DNA of 29,925 nucleotides from a virus (lineage: Duplodnaviria; Caudoviricetes), in the IMG/VR virus record IMGVR_UViG_3300017912_003285, positions 1 through 29,925 of that record; one strand, written 5' to 3'. The translations under genes were made by a program, and so were the position numbers. Positions 1 through 29,925 of the stretch are shown here, piece by piece. Every line of letters starts with the position of its first letter. The stretch's first letter is position 1. Below the pieces are notes generated by a model. It searched no databases. It saw nothing but the letters and a program-made list of their open reading frames with translations, and was not told the DNA's origin.

Positions 1-141
1 GTTAACAATTCTAGTAGTGGAATTGATTTTGTTGATAATGCAAAAGCAAGATTCGGAACCGGAAATGATTTAAATATATATCATGATTCATCAAACACAA
101 TAATTGAAAACGAAACAGGTAATTTATTCTTAATAAATAAA
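1..141. repeat. Terminal direct repeat, copy 1 (identical to 29785-29925); circular-assembly overlap
   Basis: gttaacaattctagtagtgg...ttaataaataaa occurs at both contig ends, 141 bp, and the tail-fibre reading frame continues across the join. Confidence 0.95.
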
Positions 142-3100
142 GCCGATAACATGAGTATGATTTTTCAAAATGACGACTCAACCGGTGGAGTTGAAACTTA
201 TTTCTTTTTGGATGGGGGAAACACAAGTTCAAATCCAATAACTATTTTTCCTGATAATTCAAGACTTGCTTTTGGTGGTTCTCAAGACCTAGAAATATTC
301 CACGATGGTTCAAACTCTCGTATAAACGAAACAGGAACAGGTAATTTAATAATTCAATCTACAAATTTTCAACTGTTAAAAGATGATGGTGGAGAATTTA
401 TAATGCAAGGTATTTCAGATGCAGAGGTAGCATTATATTTTGATGGAAGCAAAAAGTTGGAAACTACAAGCACAGGTGTTACTGTTACAGGTAATATTAC
501 TTTTGGTGATAGTCATTTTATTGGTGATGACTCATTTGATAATTTACAAATATTAGCATCATCTGGCGAAAATGTTGTTATACAAGCACCAACAGGAAAC
601 CAAATAGACTTAAAAACAGCAGGTGGTTCAACTTTAAGACTTGATAGTTCACAAAACGCAACATTTGCAGGGGATGTTAGTCTAGCAGATAGTAAAAAAG
701 TACAACTAGGTGATAGTGCAGACCTAGAAATATTTCATACATCAGGCAATAATTTTATTTCTGCACCTGTCGGTGGTAATTTAATATTACAGGCAAACAA
801 TGTTACTGCTAGGTCAGTGGCACAAGAAACTATGATTACAGCAGTTGCAAATGGTGCAGTAGAGCTTTATCACGATAATAGCAAAAAGTTTGAAACCACA
901 AGTGCAGGTGTAACGATTACAGGAACATCTGCAAGTAATAGTCTTTTAATTAATGGTGGTGCTGATGCAATAGCCAAAGTATTAGGCACAACAACTGGTG
1001 CAAGACTAGATTTGCAAACTAACTCACATCATAGGTTTTTACAGACAGTAGAATCAGATGGTAGATTTAGATTTTACGACCAAACAAATGGTGCTGAAAG
1101 ATTTACCATCACATCATCTGGTCTGCTTGGGCTAGGCACATCAAGTCCTAACTATGCTTTAGATATTAGTAATGCTAGTGCAAATATATTAAATTTACAC
1201 AGACCTAATTCATCAACAGCAGCAGCATCATTTTTAGATTTTAGTTTTAATACAGCAAATGGTACTGAAGCAGTTTATGCAAGAATTAGAGCAGATGTTG
1301 AAGTAAATACTGATTCAGCACAAGGAGGAGACTTGACATTTCATACTGCTAACTCAGGTACTGTTGGAGAAGTTTTGAGACTTACTCAAGAGGGAAACGC
1401 AACCTTTGCAGGTAATGTAAGTTTAGCAGATAGTGGTAGAGCAAGATTTGGTGCAGGTGGTGATTTTGCGATATATCATAATGGAACTGACACTTTTTTA
1501 GATAATTCAACAGGTGATTTAAAGATAAGGAATTTCTCAGATGACAAAGACATTATATTTCAGTCAGACGATGGCTCTGGTGGTGTTGAAAATTATATAC
1601 AAATCGATGGGAGTGAGGGTAGAACTTTATTTAATAAACCAATAAGAATAAATGATAGTGTTGAATTACAGGTTGGTAGTTCGGCTGACTTAAAAATATA
1701 CCACGATACAAGCCACTCATATATTGATGATACTGGTGTTGGTAATTTAAGATTAAGAGGCAATGCAGGTGTTCAAATAATGAAATCTGCAAGTTCTGAA
1801 ATTATGGGAGAATTTATTGCAGATGGTGCAGTAAATCTATATCACGACAATAGCAAAAAGTTTGCAACTACAAGTACAGGTGTAAGTGTAACAGGTAATA
1901 TTACTGTATCATCAGGCGTTGCTATTTTTAATGATGGCAATGGTATTAATTTTGGCAATAGTGATGCAAAAATTTATGGTTCAACTGCAAATGGTATTCA
2001 ATTTAATGCTGGTGGCTCTGAAGCAATGCGACTTAATCAGTCTGGTAATCTAGGCATAGGCACAACAAGTCCCCAATTTAATTTGCACGTAGATGCAAGT
2101 GGAAGTGGTGTTATAGCAGGTTTTTTTAACGATACTGATACAACATCGGAAGAAGCACTGTTACAGGTTGGTGGAACTTTGACAGATAATTATGGTGTAA
2201 TGTTTGGGGCAAAACCTGAAGCAGACACACCATCGGTACAAGACCACGCATTTATAGTAAAAACAAATGATAGCACAGGCACAGACCATACTGAAAGATT
2301 TAGGATTAGTTCAGATGGTAAAGTAGGAATAGGCACAACAAGTCCCTCTGCCCAATTTCACACTATTGAAACAGGCAGTTCTAATACAGCCATTTTTGAA
2401 AATAGCTCACAAACATTTTCTTATACTGCAATTAAAGTTAGTGAAGCTGTAAACAATAAATCTGCTTTAAGTTTTGTTGTTGGAGATGCTTTAGCATCTA
2501 CTGATATATTCGGTGAAGTTGCTGGTGTTGTTGTTAATGATGGTGGCACTTTAAAAGGGGATATAACTTTTAAAACAAATGTAGGGGACAATTTAACTGA
2601 AAAAATGCGAATCACATCAGCAGGAAACGTGGGTATAGGAACAACAAGTCCAGGTGGTAATCTTCACGTTGTTGGTGCATCTGGTGGTGCAGGACAAATA
2701 TACCTTTCTGATGCCGACAATGGCACAGGAACAGTCGATGCTCTGTTGATTAGTAAGTCAGGAACAAATGCATTTATATATAATCGTGATAGTGGCAATA
2801 TTAATTTCGGTACAAATGATGTATCTAGTATTTTAACTTTAGACAACTCACAAAACGCAACATTTGCAGGTAATATAACTCTTAATGGAAGCCATACAAT
2901 AACAAACGATTCTAACGGGCATCTTAACATAAATAGTGCAAGTGGTAAACAAATATTTATAGATGCACAAGGTCAATTGAGATTAGATAGTGGTGGTGCT
3001 CAAGCTCTTACATTATCAAGTTCACAAGATGCATCGTTCACAGGTAATGTAAGTTTAGCAGATAGTAAAATATTAAGAATCGGCTCAAGTAATGACCTTG

Positions 3101-3366
3101 ACCTCCTGCACGATGGAACAAATACACAAATAAGCAACAATACAGGAGATTTACAAATAATAAATAATGCAGATGACAAAGATATTAGGTTGCAAACAGA
3201 TAATGGTTCAGGATTAGTAACTGATTACATACTACTTGATGGTAGTGATGTATCAACAAAAATATTAACACAAAAGGTAATATTGTCGAATTTACCAACA
3301 TCTGACCCAAATAATGCAGGTCAGTTGTATAATGAAAGTGGTTTTTTAAGAGTTTCTGCCGGTTAA
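1..3366 (+). CDS. Long repeat-built tail fibre / receptor-binding protein, C-terminal part (true start 29335; about 1271 aa in total)
   Basis: Frame is open from base 1 into the 151..3366 ORF. Gly/Ser/Thr/Asn-rich with recurring GxxGIGTTSP, DLxIYHD, NATFAGxVSLADS and DDKDIxxQxDxGSG motifs. Ends in LPTSDPNNAGQLYNESGFLRVSAG, a type of C-terminus common in phage fibres. Confidence 0.85.
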   Translation, partial: VNNSSSGIDFVDNAKARFGTGNDLNIYHDSSNTIIENETGNLFLINKADNMSMIFQNDDSTGGVETYFFLDGGNTSSNPITIFPDNSRLAFGGSQDLEIFHDGSNSRINETGTGNLIIQSTNFQLLKDDGGEFIMQGISDAEVALYFDGSKKLETTSTGVTVTGNITFGDSHFIGDDSFDNLQILASSGENVVIQAPTGNQIDLKTAGGSTLRLDSSQNATFAGDVSLADSKKVQLGDSADLEIFHTSGNNFISAPVGGNLILQANNVTARSVAQETMITAVANGAVELYHDNSKKFETTSAGVTITGTSASNSLLINGGADAIAKVLGTTTGARLDLQTNSHHRFLQTVESDGRFRFYDQTNGAERFTITSSGLLGLGTSSPNYALDISNASANILNLHRPNSSTAAASFLDFSFNTANGTEAVYARIRADVEVNTDSAQGGDLTFHTANSGTVGEVLRLTQEGNATFAGNVSLADSGRARFGAGGDFAIYHNGTDTFLDNSTGDLKIRNFSDDKDIIFQSDDGSGGVENYIQIDGSEGRTLFNKPIRINDSVELQVGSSADLKIYHDTSHSYIDDTGVGNLRLRGNAGVQIMKSASSEIMGEFIADGAVNLYHDNSKKFATTSTGVSVTGNITVSSGVAIFNDGNGINFGNSDAKIYGSTANGIQFNAGGSEAMRLNQSGNLGIGTTSPQFNLHVDASGSGVIAGFFNDTDTTSEEALLQVGGTLTDNYGVMFGAKPEADTPSVQDHAFIVKTNDSTGTDHTERFRISSDGKVGIGTTSPSAQFHTIETGSSNTAIFENSSQTFSYTAIKVSEAVNNKSALSFVVGDALASTDIFGEVAGVVVNDGGTLKGDITFKTNVGDNLTEKMRITSAGNVGIGTTSPGGNLHVVGASGGAGQIYLSDADNGTGTVDALLISKSGTNAFIYNRDSGNINFGTNDVSSILTLDNSQNATFAGNITLNGSHTITNDSNGHLNINSASGKQIFIDAQGQLRLDSGGAQALTLSSSQDASFTGNVSLADSKILRIGSSNDLDLLHDGTNTQISNNTGDLQIINNADDKDIRLQTDNGSGLVTDYILLDGSDVSTKILTQKVILSNLPTSDPNNAGQLYNESGFLRVSAG

Positions 3367-23296: not shown

Positions 23297-23518
23297 ATGG
23301 AAACAAAAAATAAATTTCAACAAAAAGAGCAAATTCAAAGACTCATTAGAATTATTAATGCCAGAATTACTGATATTAGAGTTTTAGATGGTAGTTGGAT
23401 TATGACAGACAAAGTCTTATCACTTGTATTTAAAGAACATCCACAATTAGAAAAAAAATGGGATATGTTACACTTGAGAAAAGACAAACTAAAAAGACTT
23501 TTATGGAAATTACCATAA
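23297..23518 (+). CDS. Accessory hypothetical protein, cassette gene 1
   Basis: Preceded by the 22-bp repeated leader. Confidence 0.7.
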   Translation: METKNKFQQKEQIQRLIRIINARITDIRVLDGSWIMTDKVLSLVFKEHPQLEKKWDMLHLRKDKLKRLLWKLP

Positions 23519-23522
23519 TTTA

Positions 23523-23544
23523 ATAATTAAAAACAAAACAAATG
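23523..23544 (+). repeat. 22-bp direct repeat ATAATTAAAAACAAAACAAATG (also 23278-23299; 15-bp partial copy at 23759-23773)
   Basis: Exact match read directly; each copy ends on a start codon. Confidence 0.85.
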
Positions 23545-23754
23545 AAAAAATTTACAAAAACACTTGAATGGTATGTCTTGATGTTAGGAAATCTAGATGA
23601 AGAGATAAATAAACGAAAAGTATTACTTCGCCATGCAAGGAGTACTAAAGACAAAGATTATATAAAAAAGTGCAAGAAATCATTGACAGATGCAAAACAA
23701 TATAAAAATCGTGGTCTTACATTACGAGATTTATTAAAGAAAGAAAAATGGTAA
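23542..23754 (+). CDS. Accessory basic hypothetical protein, cassette gene 2
   Basis: Preceded by the repeated leader; helical hairpin pattern. Confidence 0.7.
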   Translation: MKKFTKTLEWYVLMLGNLDEEINKRKVLLRHARSTKDKDYIKKCKKSLTDAKQYKNRGLTLRDLLKKEKW

Positions 23755-23770
23755 TTTTAAAACAAAACAA

Positions 23771-24034
23771 ATGAAAGTATTAGCAAAAATTTTAAAAATG
23801 TTTTTCTTTGGCAAGGGTCTCCAATATTGGATATGTGTGCCGGAGTTCTTTGACACAAAAAAAGAAAAGGATTATTTTATTAAAGAGACGAATTTGTTTC
23901 TAGAAGATAAAATACAAATCAAACACCCAGCATTAGATGATGATTGGGAAACCTTAAGCAGGGAAGAACAAGTTGACAGAATGTTATTTTGGAAACAGAA
24001 AATAAATAAAAAAAAGAACAAGTATAGTGCCTAA
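23771..24034 (+). CDS. Accessory hypothetical protein, cassette gene 3
   Basis: Preceded by the partial leader and followed by a terminator. Confidence 0.7.
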   Translation: MKVLAKILKMFFFGKGLQYWICVPEFFDTKKEKDYFIKETNLFLEDKIQIKHPALDDDWETLSREEQVDRMLFWKQKINKKKNKYSA

Positions 24035-24082
24035 CCTTTTCTTTTCATATTTTTAGTTAGTTGTTTTTAATTTAGGCACTAG

Positions 24083-24110
24083 ACTGGGGTGAAAGCCCCA
24101 GTTTTTTTTT
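24083..24110 (+). terminator. Intrinsic terminator (GAAA loop)
   Basis: ACTGGGGT-GAAA-GCCCCAGT followed by a T-run. Confidence 0.85.
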
Positions 24111-24138
24111 GCTTAACTTTATAAGACAACAACACCGA

Positions 24139-24513
24139 ATGAACAGAAATCAAAAAGGCTGTTTTGCTGAATATCATTTTTCAACAACTGCAATGCAAAA
24201 TGGTTTTAATGTTTCTGTCCCTTTACTTGACTCAAGCCCTTATGATTGTATATTAGAAAAAAAAGGTAAACTTTTTAAAATACAAGTTAAATATTTAGGC
24301 GAAAAAAGATACAAGCATGGTCGGTCTGTTCAAGTTACACTTAAAAGGGAAGGAAAAAAAAATTATGATTTGGAACTAGTTGATTTTTTTGCATTATGGC
24401 ATGAGGTTAGAAAAGGTTTTTACATCATTAAAAATTTAGGTCAAAAAAGTTTCAAAATAACTGACAATGGTATTTATGAAAATAATTTTAATAACTTTGT
24501 AGAATTAGTTTAA
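24139..24513 (+). CDS. Free-standing PD-(D/E)XK endonuclease, resembling the group I intron-associated homing type
   Basis: KG..AE, G..VS.P......YD, KIQVK, Y....VDFFA motifs; ATG 24139 is preferred as start. Confidence 0.75.
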   Translation: MNRNQKGCFAEYHFSTTAMQNGFNVSVPLLDSSPYDCILEKKGKLFKIQVKYLGEKRYKHGRSVQVTLKREGKKNYDLELVDFFALWHEVRKGFYIIKNLGQKSFKITDNGIYENNFNNFVELV

Positions 24514-26527: not shown

Positions 26528-26836
26528 ATGTCAGAAATAAATTCAGAATCAAAATTAAAATTAAGCATCAAAGAAGTGATTGCTAGTGTGATTGGTTTGG
26601 CGAGTTTATTTGGCATTTATTTCACCTTGCAAGGTCAAGTTGACAACAACATGGAAGATATACAAAGTCTGCAAAATGATTCTGTAAACCCTGTTGAGTT
26701 TCAATATAAAGATGAACTTGTTAGGTCATCAATCCTTAGAATCGAAGATAAAACAAATTTTTTAGCAGATGATATTGAGTCAATCAAATCATCGGTTGAA
26801 AAAATTGAGCAACGTTTATATGAAATTAAAAGATAA
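26528..26836 (+). CDS. Single-TM membrane protein with C-terminal coiled coil (i-spanin-like topology)
   Basis: TM segment VIASVIGLASLFGIYFTL; heptads LADDIESIKSSVEKIEQRLYEI. Confidence 0.6.
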   Translation: MSEINSESKLKLSIKEVIASVIGLASLFGIYFTLQGQVDNNMEDIQSLQNDSVNPVEFQYKDELVRSSILRIEDKTNFLADDIESIKSSVEKIEQRLYEIKR

Positions 26837-27173
26837 AATATGTGTCCTGTTAACTGTCCTTTATGTATCTTTTGCGAGTAGTCAAAATTATAAAAACAAC
26901 GTTAGTGTCGTGGTTTTCAATGCTGACTTCATCGGGCAAAAAGTTGATGTCAAAGATTTCAAACAAGTTGACAAATATCTGTTTACATTTGAAAACTATA
27001 AACATAAAAAGCATTTTCAAAAAGAAAAAATAATTTATATGCCGACACTATTGCTTTTTAACAATGGTGAAGAACTTATAAGAATTGAAGCAGGTATTGA
27101 CCTAAAACTCCCTGACAACTACAAAAATAAAATCAAAAATAAATTAGAAGAACTTTTACAAAATAAATTTTAA
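26820..27173 (+). CDS. Secreted thioredoxin-fold protein lacking CxxC
   Basis: Signal peptide MKLKDKICVLLTVLYVSFASS/Q; VVVFNADF where thioredoxin has F.A.WCxxC; I.YMPTLLLFNNGEELIRI thioredoxin C-terminal motif. Start ATG 26820. Confidence 0.65.
   Translation: MKLKDKICVLLTVLYVSFASSQNYKNNVSVVVFNADFIGQKVDVKDFKQVDKYLFTFENYKHKKHFQKEKIIYMPTLLLFNNGEELIRIEAGIDLKLPDNYKNKIKNKLEELLQNKF
26840..26881 (+). CDS. Candidate overprinted Cys-rich micro-ORF MCPVNCPLCIFCE
   Basis: ATG 3 nt after the stop of 26528..26836, in that same frame, with an A-rich leader; nested in the signal-peptide codons of the next gene. Confidence 0.35.
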   Translation: MCPVNCPLCIFCE

Positions 27174-27174
27174 G

Positions 27175-28347
27175 ATGAAAAAACTATATATTATATTTTT
27201 ACTTTTTACAATATCACTGAATGGTCAAATTTTCAAAAAAGCCTATAATGAGATTTTTAAATATTCAACAGTCTTTGTGGCAGGTAGTGCTCAAAATTCA
27301 TACGAGCCAGAAAGAAGGCAATATTTTGTGAGAACGCCAGAGGGTGCTGGTTTGTACGACATCCCTGAAGTATATGATGCCACTGTGGTGCATCCATACA
27401 GGTATCGTTATGGTTTTGGTATAAGAAAAATTGGATTGTTTGATTTTGAAAAAAGAGACAAGAATTATTATGATGGCAATGAAAACCTTGTTGCATTGTC
27501 AGCACCAACATCAAGTGTGCCCGGCAATTTAGAGTATTTATTCTTTTGGCAAAAAGAAAGAGACAGAGGTGAACTTTTTACAAACACTAGATACTTTATT
27601 AGACACACAGGCAAATGGCATATTGTAAAACTAGAGCAAAGGTCAAATGAAAGAGTAAATTTCAAATACAATTCTGGGGAAGTTAGATTGAGAATACCGA
27701 TTGGAAAAAAACTAAGCATTTCTTATGGTGCCATATACAGAACACATACAAGAAGTTATGGATATAATCCTTTTGAAATATGGGTCAATGAACTAAACGA
27801 CAATGGCAATCCAGTTAATCCTTGGTATTCTCTTGCTTATGAATATGGTTGGGTTGATGAGTTGTTTCAATATACCAATCTTGCAACCGGTGAAACATCT
27901 TACGACTGGGTTTGGACTGACCCTGATGGAAACATTAGGGCAAGGACAGACTTAGAGTTTAGGGATGGGCCTTTCAAATCAATCATCGCAGAATATAACA
28001 ACCAAGAATGGGATAAAATACCAGAATTTGAAATGATTTCGCAAATTGTTGGTTTCGATTATTATTTACAAAACCAAAAATTCTGGGTGCATCTGTTTGG
28101 TTCTTATCTATTCTCACATAAATACATTGGTGGTTCTGATATTGAAAAAAGTTATTTGCATAGAAATAATTTTGGCAAAGGTGGATTAATGAAAGATGCT
28201 CAACCAGAGCAATGGCAAGATTATCAATTCGGTGCGACTATTGGATGGAAACTCAACAGATTTGGTATTTTCTTGGATGGTGAGTTTACAAGGTATTGGT
28301 CGTCTGAAATATTTAACACACAAATTGGTGTGAATTTTAGATTATGA
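27175..28347 (+). CDS. Predicted outer-membrane beta-barrel protein
   Basis: Signal peptide MKKLYIIFLLFTISLNG/Q; many alternating amphipathic, aromatic-rich strands; C-terminal beta-signal-like FNTQIGVNFRL. Confidence 0.65.
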   Translation: MKKLYIIFLLFTISLNGQIFKKAYNEIFKYSTVFVAGSAQNSYEPERRQYFVRTPEGAGLYDIPEVYDATVVHPYRYRYGFGIRKIGLFDFEKRDKNYYDGNENLVALSAPTSSVPGNLEYLFFWQKERDRGELFTNTRYFIRHTGKWHIVKLEQRSNERVNFKYNSGEVRLRIPIGKKLSISYGAIYRTHTRSYGYNPFEIWVNELNDNGNPVNPWYSLAYEYGWVDELFQYTNLATGETSYDWVWTDPDGNIRARTDLEFRDGPFKSIIAEYNNQEWDKIPEFEMISQIVGFDYYLQNQKFWVHLFGSYLFSHKYIGGSDIEKSYLHRNNFGKGGLMKDAQPEQWQDYQFGATIGWKLNRFGIFLDGEFTRYWSSEIFNTQIGVNFRL

Positions 28348-28775
28348 GAAAAATCGACAAACTCATCGTGCATTGTTCTGCAACTCCAGAGTTTAAATAT
28401 TTTGATGTTGATGACATAAGAGACTGGCATGTCAAAGGCAATAAATGGTCTGATTGTGGCTATCATTATGTAATCACCTTGGATGGTAAAATACAACAAG
28501 GAAGGCCGGTTGAAAAGCAAGGTGCTCATGTTGCCGGTATGAACAAACACAGCATCGGTATTTGTTATATTGGGGGCATGGATAAAAACATGGATTTGTG
28601 GCTAGACACTAGAACACCAGAACAAAAAGATGCATTGTTTAATTTGCTTATGGACTTAAAATTTCAGTATCCTGAATCAGTCGTGTATGGTCACAATGAT
28701 TTCACTGATAAAAAAGTTTGTCCTTGTTTTGATGCTTTTAAAGAATATCGTGAAATCTCAAATTATACTGAATAA
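28344..28775 (+). CDS. Endolysin, N-acetylmuramoyl-L-alanine amidase (T7 lysozyme-like)
   Basis: IVHCSAT, GYHY, GAH, SIGICY.GG and GH.D....K.CP.FD zinc-amidase motifs. Confidence 0.95.
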   Translation: MRKIDKLIVHCSATPEFKYFDVDDIRDWHVKGNKWSDCGYHYVITLDGKIQQGRPVEKQGAHVAGMNKHSIGICYIGGMDKNMDLWLDTRTPEQKDALFNLLMDLKFQYPESVVYGHNDFTDKKVCPCFDAFKEYREISNYTE

Positions 28776-28777
28776 CT

Positions 28778-29176
28778 ATGTTAAAATTATTAATGTCGCT
28801 TATTGGTAAAAAAGGGGATGGTCTTGGTGGATTTGCCACTGACATCAGAGAAGCAATCAAAGGAAAAGAAATTGACCCAAACAAAGCACTTGAACTTGTA
28901 AAGTTACAAAATGAAATCAATAAGGTTGAAGCACAACATCGGTCTGTTTTTGTAAGTGGATGGCGACCTTTTATTGGTTGGGTTTGTGGTGTGGCTTTGG
29001 CTTATAATTTTATAGTTCGTGATTTACTTACATGGTTTATGTCAAACTATTATTCAGAGTTAGGGGTTACGATGCCACCTGCTTTACAAATGGAACATTT
29101 GATGACAGTGCTTTTGGGTATGCTTGGCCTGGGTGGTCTTAGAACTTATGAAAAACTAAAAGATAAGTCTAAGTAG
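28778..29176 (+). CDS. Holin (3TM/GTA-holin-like family)
   Basis: SVFVSGWRPFIGWVCG and LLGMLGLGGLRTYEK motifs; adjacent to the endolysin. Confidence 0.82.
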   Translation: MLKLLMSLIGKKGDGLGGFATDIREAIKGKEIDPNKALELVKLQNEINKVEAQHRSVFVSGWRPFIGWVCGVALAYNFIVRDLLTWFMSNYYSELGVTMPPALQMEHLMTVLLGMLGLGGLRTYEKLKDKSK

Positions 29177-29298
29177 TGGCAAAAAAAAACATTTTTACAT
29201 TTTACAAAAAGCCAAGAAAAAAAAGGCCAGGTCGTCATTCTAAGAACCAATCACAATCACAAAGGAAAAAAAAATATAGAGGCCAGGGTAAAATTTAA
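29176..29298 (+). CDS. 40-aa highly basic peptide MAKKNIFTFYKKPRKKRPGRHSKNQSQSQRKKKYRGQGKI
   Basis: Read by hand. GTG start overlaps the holin stop (TAGTG); no acidic residues; KKYRGQG ending recalls small basic phage proteins. Confidence 0.7.
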   Translation: MAKKNIFTFYKKPRKKRPGRHSKNQSQSQRKKKYRGQGKI

Positions 29299-29334: not shown

Positions 29335-29925
29335 ATGGCAACACTTACAGGACAAACTATTGCCTCGACTTATGATGGCTTATTAAAATTATCTGACAAC
29401 GATGGATTAACAGCATCGGTCAAAAACATACAAGATGGCCTAGGTATAAGTTCGCCAGTAAACATTTCAACTGCTGTATTATTTATAAAACCAACATCTG
29501 ACACTAGTTCAACACCAACATCGGGAAAAGAATTTGAGGTCGTTGGTAATGCTTTAATTACAGGCGACTTACAAGTTGACAATATCAATATTGATGGCAA
29601 CACAATATCTGCAACGAGTGGTGTTGTGACATTGGCTAATGGTGCGATTGCCACAACACAAAGTCAAAATGACAATTCAACAAAGATTGCAACAACTGCT
29701 TATGTTGACTCAGCAGTGGATGGTGTTGACACACTTGCCGAGATTCTTGCAATAGGAAACACAACAGGTTCAACTAAAATATCGGTTAACAATTCTAGTA
29801 GTGGAATTGATTTTGTTGATAATGCAAAAGCAAGATTCGGAACCGGAAATGATTTAAATATATATCATGATTCATCAAACACAATAATTGAAAACGAAAC
29901 AGGTAATTTATTCTTAATAAATAAA
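29335..29925 (+). CDS. Tail fibre N-terminal part (MATLTGQTIASTYDGLLKL...), continues at base 142
   Basis: Open to the contig end; contains DNINIDGNTIS and DNSTKIATTAYVD fibre motifs; 150 codons precede the terminal repeat, in frame with base 1. Confidence 0.88.
   Translation, partial: MATLTGQTIASTYDGLLKLSDNDGLTASVKNIQDGLGISSPVNISTAVLFIKPTSDTSSTPTSGKEFEVVGNALITGDLQVDNINIDGNTISATSGVVTLANGAIATTQSQNDNSTKIATTAYVDSAVDGVDTLAEILAIGNTTGSTKISVNNSSSGIDFVDNAKARFGTGNDLNIYHDSSNTIIENETGNLFLINK
29785..29925. repeat. Terminal direct repeat, copy 2
   Basis: Identical to 1-141. Confidence 0.95.

Follow-up and report, generated by a model that had tools for sequence, protein, structure and literature searches.

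Two-component spanins (lambda Rz/Rz1 and the separated-gene types) are encoded by small overlapping genes in the lysis cassette and place one component in each membrane, the inner-membrane component (i-spanin) being a type II protein whose two helical stretches are joined by a linker (Kongari et al. 2018, PMC6139136). About 13% of the surveyed phages of Gram-negative hosts carry no identifiable spanin, Bacteroides and Croceibacter phages are among those listed, and an outer-membrane protein is raised, without an example, as a possible outer-membrane component (o-spanin; PMC6139136). Here we analyse the uncultured virus record IMGVR_UViG_3300017912_003285, whose whole 29.9-kb length we refer to as the window, and within it a module of three genes next to the amidase and holin: a predicted inner-membrane coiled coil (CC), an exported thioredoxin fold (TRX) and a predicted outer-membrane beta-barrel (BAR). 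The module shares with two-component spanins the type II inner-membrane plan, the small overlapping genes, the lysis-cassette position and the allotment of one component to each membrane; unlike them, it has no outer-membrane lipoprotein and carries instead a soluble thioredoxin fold and a 12-stranded barrel. The reading we favour, and hold to be possible rather than probable, is that the trio would act as a trans-envelope substitute for spanins, with the barrel as outer-membrane anchor.

Two further kinds of phage system bear comparison. Disruptin phiKT gp28 is a small basic peptide of a spanin-less lysis cassette (10.1101/515445); the trio itself is unrelated to it, and the likeness concerns a 40-residue open reading frame (ORF) behind the holin. 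Phages also carry genes for barrels of the host outer membrane, among them lambda Lom and the barrels of huge phages (10.64898/2026.10.24.761521). The barrels described are mostly 8- or 22-stranded and often closely related to host proteins, and the main text of that preprint mentions neither thioredoxins nor spanins, whereas the BAR family is tied to CC, TRX and lysis genes. No cellular relatives of BAR were found beyond six contigs matched in GTDB, which come from metagenome bins under four labels, have phage-like neighbours and are read here as binned phage contigs. The literature searched, most of it non-subscription, held no description of such a module; the supplementary barrel table of the huge-phage preprint could hold relatives. 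Having no outer-membrane lipoprotein, the module falls outside the definition of a spanin, and we set it apart as an undescribed type.

Anatomy of the trio

The tail terminator gene is followed, in order, by CC, TRX, BAR, the amidase, the holin and the 40-residue basic peptide. As the preliminary description of this DNA had stated, three tightly coupled genes lie directly upstream of the lysis genes; all three are on the plus strand. The endolysin (28344-28775, plus strand) is an N-acetylmuramoyl-L-alanine amidase matching PF01510 (Amidase_2, E 3.9e-16) and phrog_822 (E 4.2e-55), and the holin (28778-29176, plus strand) is of the GTA_holin_3TM type (PF11351, E 1.3e-13; phrog_3427).

CC (26528-26836, plus strand) encodes 102 residues with the predicted topology of a type II (N-in, C-out) inner-membrane protein. 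Its one hydrophobic, putatively transmembrane segment begins at residue 12, leaving only about 11 cytoplasmic residues and 69 outside, where two helical stretches are separated by a proline linker. The N-terminal side is the richer in Lys/Arg in 55 of 72 aligned members and the C-terminal side in 3 of 72, the linker proline is present in 66/72, and hydrophobic residues occupy 10 of the 12 heptad a/d positions, all in agreement with the single-pass coiled coil originally proposed. E57 is invariant and K15, K61, D62 and R66 are near-invariant; the outer part spans 55-82 residues across the aligned members (median 64). CC is about half the length of Rz. Pfam gave no match, and PHROG only a weak one to a family of unknown function (PHROG 3999). 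Long variants of 208-224 residues (for example L090 9092-9766 and L136 6852-7478) have, on the cytoplasmic side, an additional N-terminal domain and a poly-proline linker, which hints at a capacity of CC to bind partners in the cytoplasm.

TRX (26820-27173, plus strand) encodes 117 residues from an ATG that matches the start in relatives and overlaps CC by 17 nt; an alternative 134-residue ORF from 26769 exceeds the relatives in length. A signal peptide is predicted, with cleavage before the near-invariant Q22. The family profile matches 186 solved thioredoxin sequences in the PDB at E<=0.001, and relatives pass PF00085. The cis-Pro loop (P75-T76) is retained, with P75 invariant, and CxxC occurs in the last 95 residues of 0/96 aligned members, 37 of which have no Cys there at all. 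Judged from its sequence, TRX is a redox-dead, putatively periplasmic thioredoxin fold, with fold and cis-Pro loop kept and the CxxC active site absent, as had been suggested.

BAR (27175-28347, plus strand) encodes 390 residues with a signal peptide (Q18) and a predicted 12-stranded outer-membrane beta-barrel, and its TGA stop overlaps the amidase ATG at 28344 (ATGA), the overlap noted in the preliminary description. AlphaFold2 models from 120 close and from 140 diverse sequences gave predicted local distance difference test (pLDDT) scores of 73.7 and 92.8, the second with a predicted template-modelling (pTM) score of 0.82. Both contain 12 long amphipathic strands, with hydrophobicity alternating in all 12, which agrees with the amphipathic strands described earlier. 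Using VIA-align, the best match for the first model was EstA (Z 11.6, root-mean-square deviation (rmsd) 4.0, 171 aligned), and those for the second were the TamA barrel (Z 11.2, rmsd 3.7, 184 aligned), CdiB (10.8) and EstA (10.5); for both models all top matches are outer-membrane barrels and none is clearly ahead. Described 12-stranded outer-membrane barrels (autotransporter, KdgM/NanC, OmpLA, LpxR) share strand number and topology with BAR (Z 9-11), but at 3-14% identity and rmsd 3.7-7 Å, with none standing out. With regard to a catalytic Ser-His-Asn or His-Ca site, H191, H306 and H315 are conserved and no Ser exceeds 80%, as a lipase-type triad would need, and the match to OmpLA/LpxR-type hydrolases (Z 8.9-9.1) is not better than that to other barrels. 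Foldseek against the PDB returned weak barrel matches only, BFVD one unnamed family member plus generic barrels, and the atlas searches unnamed viral clusters; BAR had no match in Pfam, PHROG, NCBIfam, PDB sequences or GenBank phages. Its environmental homologs number 844, with 352 representatives at 50% identity, fragments included.

In the strand order of BAR, both termini and the short turns share one side and the loops 41-75, 192-284 and 320-348 the opposite one; from the models, we infer that the short-turn side is periplasmic. The exception is segment 86-117 (32 residues), which is long and yet belongs to the short-turn side; 10 of its positions are conserved at >=80%, and since the second model folds it with confidence, it may be a plug of the lumen. 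Residues 192-284 form a conserved, acidic outer domain of 93 residues. Conservation is focused on lumen-facing residues of a polar lumen (T32, Y34, G82, R84, E120, K152, R171, G185, R189, H191, G293, Y297, W304, H306, G353, G357, E368, G385 and N387). The terminal beta-signal that had been proposed turned out to be loose, the last residue being L in 49, F in 37, K in 26 and R in 18 of 140 sequences; within the last strand, G385 is invariant and N387 near-invariant. A complex prediction for barrel and TRX scored 0.00 and gave no answer, and is used neither for nor against binding.

The window has direct terminal repeats and a completeness rated 100%, and was circularised for a relaxed six-frame lipobox scan. 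Six ORFs were flagged, all nested or antisense; five have TTG/GTG starts (31-94 residues), and the conservation check covered the ATG-started one only. This ORF (27803-27955), nested in the BAR gene, was rejected as an embedded o-spanin because it is not conserved: its hydrophobic core is disrupted in two 95-96% relatives and, of 54 distinct sequences, the remaining 51 have a broken frame. In G024, a second complete genome with the trio, a scan of this kind yielded no candidate. TRX and the barrel have Q after the signal peptide and no lipobox, and the lipobox scan found no unimolecular spanin (u-spanin; N-terminal lipoylation plus a C-terminal transmembrane segment) in the window. CC, TRX and the barrel match no spanin family in Pfam, PHROG or NCBIfam, and 0/78 frequent neighbour families scanned, out of 142 listed, carry a spanin annotation. 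A lipoprotein encoded near the module in relatives was likewise rejected as the o-spanin partner of CC, since it lies within 3 kb in just 9/39 close and 1/51 distant loci (sets defined below) and is absent from the window and from G024; considered as a u-spanin, it has no hydrophobic segment past residue 35 in 20 distinct sequences. The complete genome thus appears to hold no credible lipoprotein or spanin gene, in keeping with the earlier judgement that neither a lipobox-bearing o-spanin nor a u-spanin is present.

The i-spanin plan of CC, the missing o-spanin and the published option of an outer-membrane protein in that role lead us to favour a spanin substitute. In the proposed mechanism, CC would be the i-spanin-like inner-membrane component, TRX would be a periplasmic adaptor between CC and barrel, binding peptide segments at its conserved cis-Pro loop, and the barrel would replace the lipoprotein o-spanin as outer-membrane anchor. 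Once the amidase has removed the wall, the linked membranes would be drawn together and the outer membrane would fail.

Linkage across uncultured phages

Related loci were collected from IMG/VR in two barrel-anchored scans, covering the best 80 of 524 (close) and the best 80 of 556 (distant) confirmed stretches, and in a CC-anchored scan covering the best 80 of 550 stretches. These searches were built on narrower alignments; the two most diverse alignments offered no conserved stretch. Linkage counts are restricted to loci with 3 kb on both sides (39/80 close, 51/79 distant) and, in the CC-anchored set, to the 55/78 loci with enough flank. Surveyed loci are top-scoring matches and not independent, and dereplication at 70% identity was applied as a cross-check. 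We estimate that IMG/VR contains about 650 stretches with the close pattern and about 1,800 with the broad pattern.

In 39/39 close loci and 46/51 distant ones, both CC and TRX are found no more than 3 kb from the barrel; the remaining 5 have them elsewhere in the fetched stretch. The synteny with endolysin whose examination had been suggested was found: 38/39 close and 38/51 distant loci have an endolysin or holin gene at most 3 kb away from the barrel. After dereplication, the corresponding figures are 26/27 for CC and TRX and 23/27 for endolysin or holin. Gene order is either CC-TRX-barrel or barrel-CC-TRX, the endolysin family switches (amidase, M15 peptidase and two others), and the holin and the upstream virion genes also vary; that linkage to lysis genes persists through all these changes supports a role in lysis. 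The trio is conserved over hundreds of uncultured phages, and cultured phages gave no match for barrel, TRX or CC.

In the CC-anchored set, TRX is adjacent in 55/55 loci and the barrel is present in 45/55. The barrel-less TRX sequences form one clade (support 1.0) together with second copies from genomes with two pairs. Type a TRX, to which that of the window belongs, is accompanied by a barrel in 45/45 loci, and type b alone in 0/10; the constant barrel beside type a pairs supports the proposed trans-envelope complex. As TRX is always beside CC and type b on its own lacks the barrel, the CC-TRX pair forms the core, and only for type a is the trio obligate. Barrel-less type b is one lineage, so it may reflect a single event, and its pair would use another outer-membrane partner, from host or phage. 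A second, divergent pair of type b flanks the other side of the barrel in L003 (6450-8905), L049, L189 and others, and stands alone in the barrel-less phages L195-L198, L204, L207, L209, L218 and L242.

The preliminary description had proposed a non-spanin machine for outer-membrane lysis. Its anatomy, its co-occurrence and its link to lysis genes stand, while the lysis function is read from gene order only and the trio is not always inseparable. Three results had been named as speaking against that proposal, namely a soluble or virion fold for the 390-residue protein, failure of the three genes to co-occur in relatives, and ordinary spanins alongside them; none was seen in the main clade.

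The behaviour of the CC-TRX pair also bears on an explanation that we consider unlikely, in which the barrel would sense an outside cue, TRX would relay it as adaptor, and CC would restrain or trigger the holin, a four-Cys micro-peptide (described below) being the metal or redox input to lysis timing. T4 lysis inhibition (RI-T) is the model for such a relay. Barrel-less and duplicated pairs fit its modularity, the short CC fits signalling better than spanning, a barrel with conserved lumen and outer domain would be suited to sensing a ligand, the module is tightly linked to holin and endolysin, and an accessory membrane factor at the holin level is reported for LambdaSo (10.1101/2024.01.23.576932). 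However, only about 11 residues of CC are cytoplasmic, the module partners at least two holin types, and the absence of a spanin would be left unexplained.

A four-cysteine micro-gene

The preliminary description missed a candidate fourth gene (26840-26881, plus strand), whose 13-residue peptide has the pattern C-x3-C-x2-C-x2-C and is encoded in another frame over the signal-peptide codons of TRX, its ATG 3 nt past the CC stop. Because Val/Ala-rich codons can yield Cys in a shifted frame, a by-product test was run in which the amino acids of the signal peptide were held fixed, synonymous codons were resampled and short ATG frames were counted. Among 193 distinct TRX 5' ends, 44 short ATG frames with at least four Cys were observed against 6.7 expected, an excess that is not a p-value since the TRX sequences are related, and frames with exactly three Cys numbered 0 against 10.0 expected. 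Four-Cys ORFs on the module strand within 1.5 kb of the module number 106 (in 1.13 Mb), compared with 15 farther away (in 2.14 Mb); the opposite strand has 14 in the module's vicinity. The resampling, together with these strand and distance counts, led us to reject a by-product of Val/Ala-rich signal codons.

Two micro-genes were never found near one module: one is present in 35/52 close and 30/46 CC-anchored loci, and otherwise none. The gene occurs in only 2/52 distant and 9/41 dereplicated loci. It lies in the signal codons of TRX, of the lipoprotein, of a YfiM-like gene or of the barrel, or stands alone, and A is found at -3 in 57 of 73 contexts. A motif-only scan of all IMG/VR contigs, with one motif variant, gave 47 hits, of which 43 are no farther than 4 kb from CC, TRX or the barrel, a share in which relatives are favoured because the pattern was derived from module-adjacent peptides. 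Although the pattern makes no demand of this kind, an in-frame ATG is found within 25 codons in all 47; 12 have no long overlapping frame.

Taken together, these patterns lead us to take the micro-gene as a real, optional fourth member of the module. The Cys spacings of its putative peptide resemble zinc knuckles and minimal iron-sulfur motifs, and the peptide is predicted as likely to bind metal. Peptide and the exported Cys-rich proteins of the distant group do not coincide (68 loci with the peptide, 35 with the proteins, 0 with both, 50 with neither), an exclusivity that follows lineage. Added to the spanin substitution favoured here, the peptide would complete a third way of disrupting the outer membrane, widespread among phages of marine Bacteroidota, in which a redox-dead thioredoxin would link an i-spanin-like coil to a phage barrel, and the set would be tuned by a metal-binding four-Cys peptide of 11-19 residues that is encoded within signal-peptide codons of neighbouring genes and enters the periplasm only upon holin opening; we regard this extended scheme as doubtful.

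That a four-Cys peptide accompanies the module also speaks for solute uptake or an aid to export, by a substrate-specific 12-stranded channel (KdgM/NanC-like) and helpers that would benefit the infected cell, for instance through a metal bound by the peptide. Basic and His residues line the lumen, the fold matches of BAR include NanC, KdgM and CymA, and 12-stranded barrels of huge phages are often flanked by transport genes (10.64898/2026.10.24.761521). We nevertheless rate such a channel as very unlikely, given that the frequent neighbour families include no transporter, binding protein or TonB component, that the module is located at the end of the late operon, that no fold match is ahead of the others, and that the micro-gene is absent from 17/52 close and 50/52 distant loci.

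Neighbouring genes, their bearing on function, and host

The basic peptide behind the holin (29176-29298, plus strand) has 40 residues, a net charge of +16, 20% hydrophobic residues and a moderate hydrophobic moment (0.52), unlike disruptin gp28 with its 56 residues, charge of +7 and predicted amphipathic helix (10.1101/515445). Of 129 holin-bearing loci, 44 have a relative within 300 nt behind the holin. The peptide is a candidate for a disruptin-like or a DNA-binding/DNA-condensing role.

The lipoprotein mentioned above is encoded near the module in 29 loci (for example L022 12940-13326 and L218 9623-10000). It has a conserved N-terminal half and a Tyr/Asn/Pro-rich tail and matches the Cor exclusion family weakly (phrog_1119, E 5.7e-4), and its signal codons often contain the four-Cys micro-gene. 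Distant relatives have exported proteins of two families, found in 35 and 11 loci (L093 9032-9706, L087 9971-10480), inserted in or after the trio; one of these families begins with an LDL-receptor-A-like Cys-rich region. Their C-terminal tails resemble type IX secretion signals; they match no type IX sorting domain in NCBIfam or Pfam, and in the PDB they match the C-terminal ends of 4kca and 7jvi weakly (E 0.1-0.36). A peptide of 45-47 residues lies between endolysin and holin in 41 loci (L003 9366-9509; L196 11060-11197), whether or not a barrel is present, with alternating hydrophobic residues, an aromatic end and no family match. A membrane peptide of 40-43 residues with a His/Cys-rich start, possibly metal-binding to judge from that composition, lies behind the holin in about 12 loci (L004 9956-10084; L009 12707-12838).

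This neighbourhood, and the barrel itself, keep alive a different function. The conserved lumen and large outer domain leave in play both alternatives of the preliminary description, transport, treated above, and receptor masking. In the latter, the barrel, aided or positioned by CC-TRX, would remodel the surface and cover or bind a receptor for phages; an infected cell would then withstand a second infection, progeny would not adsorb to debris, and adjacency to lysis genes would only reflect late expression. A big conserved acidic domain on the outside of the barrel suits such a role, as do a weakly Cor-like lipoprotein, a YfiM-like protein and exported proteins with type IX-like tails among the neighbours, the many barrels of phages, including lambda Lom blocking LamB, treated in the preprint (10.64898/2026.10.24.761521), and the distance that sometimes separates CC-TRX from the lysis genes. 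Yet 39/39 close and 51/51 distant loci couple the barrel with one protein of the inner membrane and one of the periplasm, whereas known masking proteins are, to our knowledge, single outer-membrane proteins. Linkage to lysis genes also outlasts many rearrangements, and a lipoprotein-free genome would be left without any spanin. We consider masking somewhat unlikely.

Several observations weigh against a spanin substitute. The periplasm is about 20 nm wide, and the outer part of CC reaches at most about 10 nm if helical, well short of that width even with the thioredoxin added. The conserved lumen of the barrel (R84, E120, K152, R171, R189, H191, H306, E368 and several Gly) and its 93-residue outer domain exceed what an anchor needs. 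A recognised lysis gene is lacking within 3 kb in 13/51 distant loci, and 10/55 CC-anchored loci have CC-TRX without a barrel. Among 24 records searched whole, two complete ones have no barrel, and in one of them, G011, a distance of about 27 kb separates a lipoprotein-CC-TRX group from endolysin and holin. Outer-membrane disruption also has a further candidate in the basic peptide behind the holin. Finally, the neighbourhood also gathers the lipoprotein with its weak Cor match, the YfiM-like protein and the exported Cys-rich proteins, and where other envelope genes collect in this way, adjacency to lysis genes may merely reflect late expression.

The called genes of the window are all on the plus strand and include, by Pfam and PHROG profile scans, terminase, portal, HK97-type capsid, neck, tail tube and tape-measure genes, a set that marks it as a siphovirus. 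A tail-fibre-like gene spans the genome ends (29335-29925 plus 1-3366), where bases at the start of the window recur at its end, consistent with the terminal repeat. Between the capsid and head-tail connector genes (23297-24513) lie three small ORFs without a family match and a PD-(D/E)XK nuclease. A Shine-Dalgarno-like 4-mer precedes 0/40 gene starts, A stands at -3 in 24/40, and Gln directly follows the signal peptide in 127/140 barrels and 91/96 thioredoxins, all of which we take to be Bacteroidota traits. The closest cultured matches of the primase are Flavobacterium phages (33%); capsid and amidase matches gave no host information. On these grounds the host of this uncultured, marine phage is likely a member of the Bacteroidota, with Flavobacteria proposed.

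The micro-gene family is mobile, 11-19 codons long, overlooked by gene callers and found repeatedly within signal-peptide codons. The module to which it belongs offers a concrete, abundant and clonable candidate for spanin-less outer-membrane lysis and, whatever its function, represents a phage-only trans-envelope set without a described counterpart.

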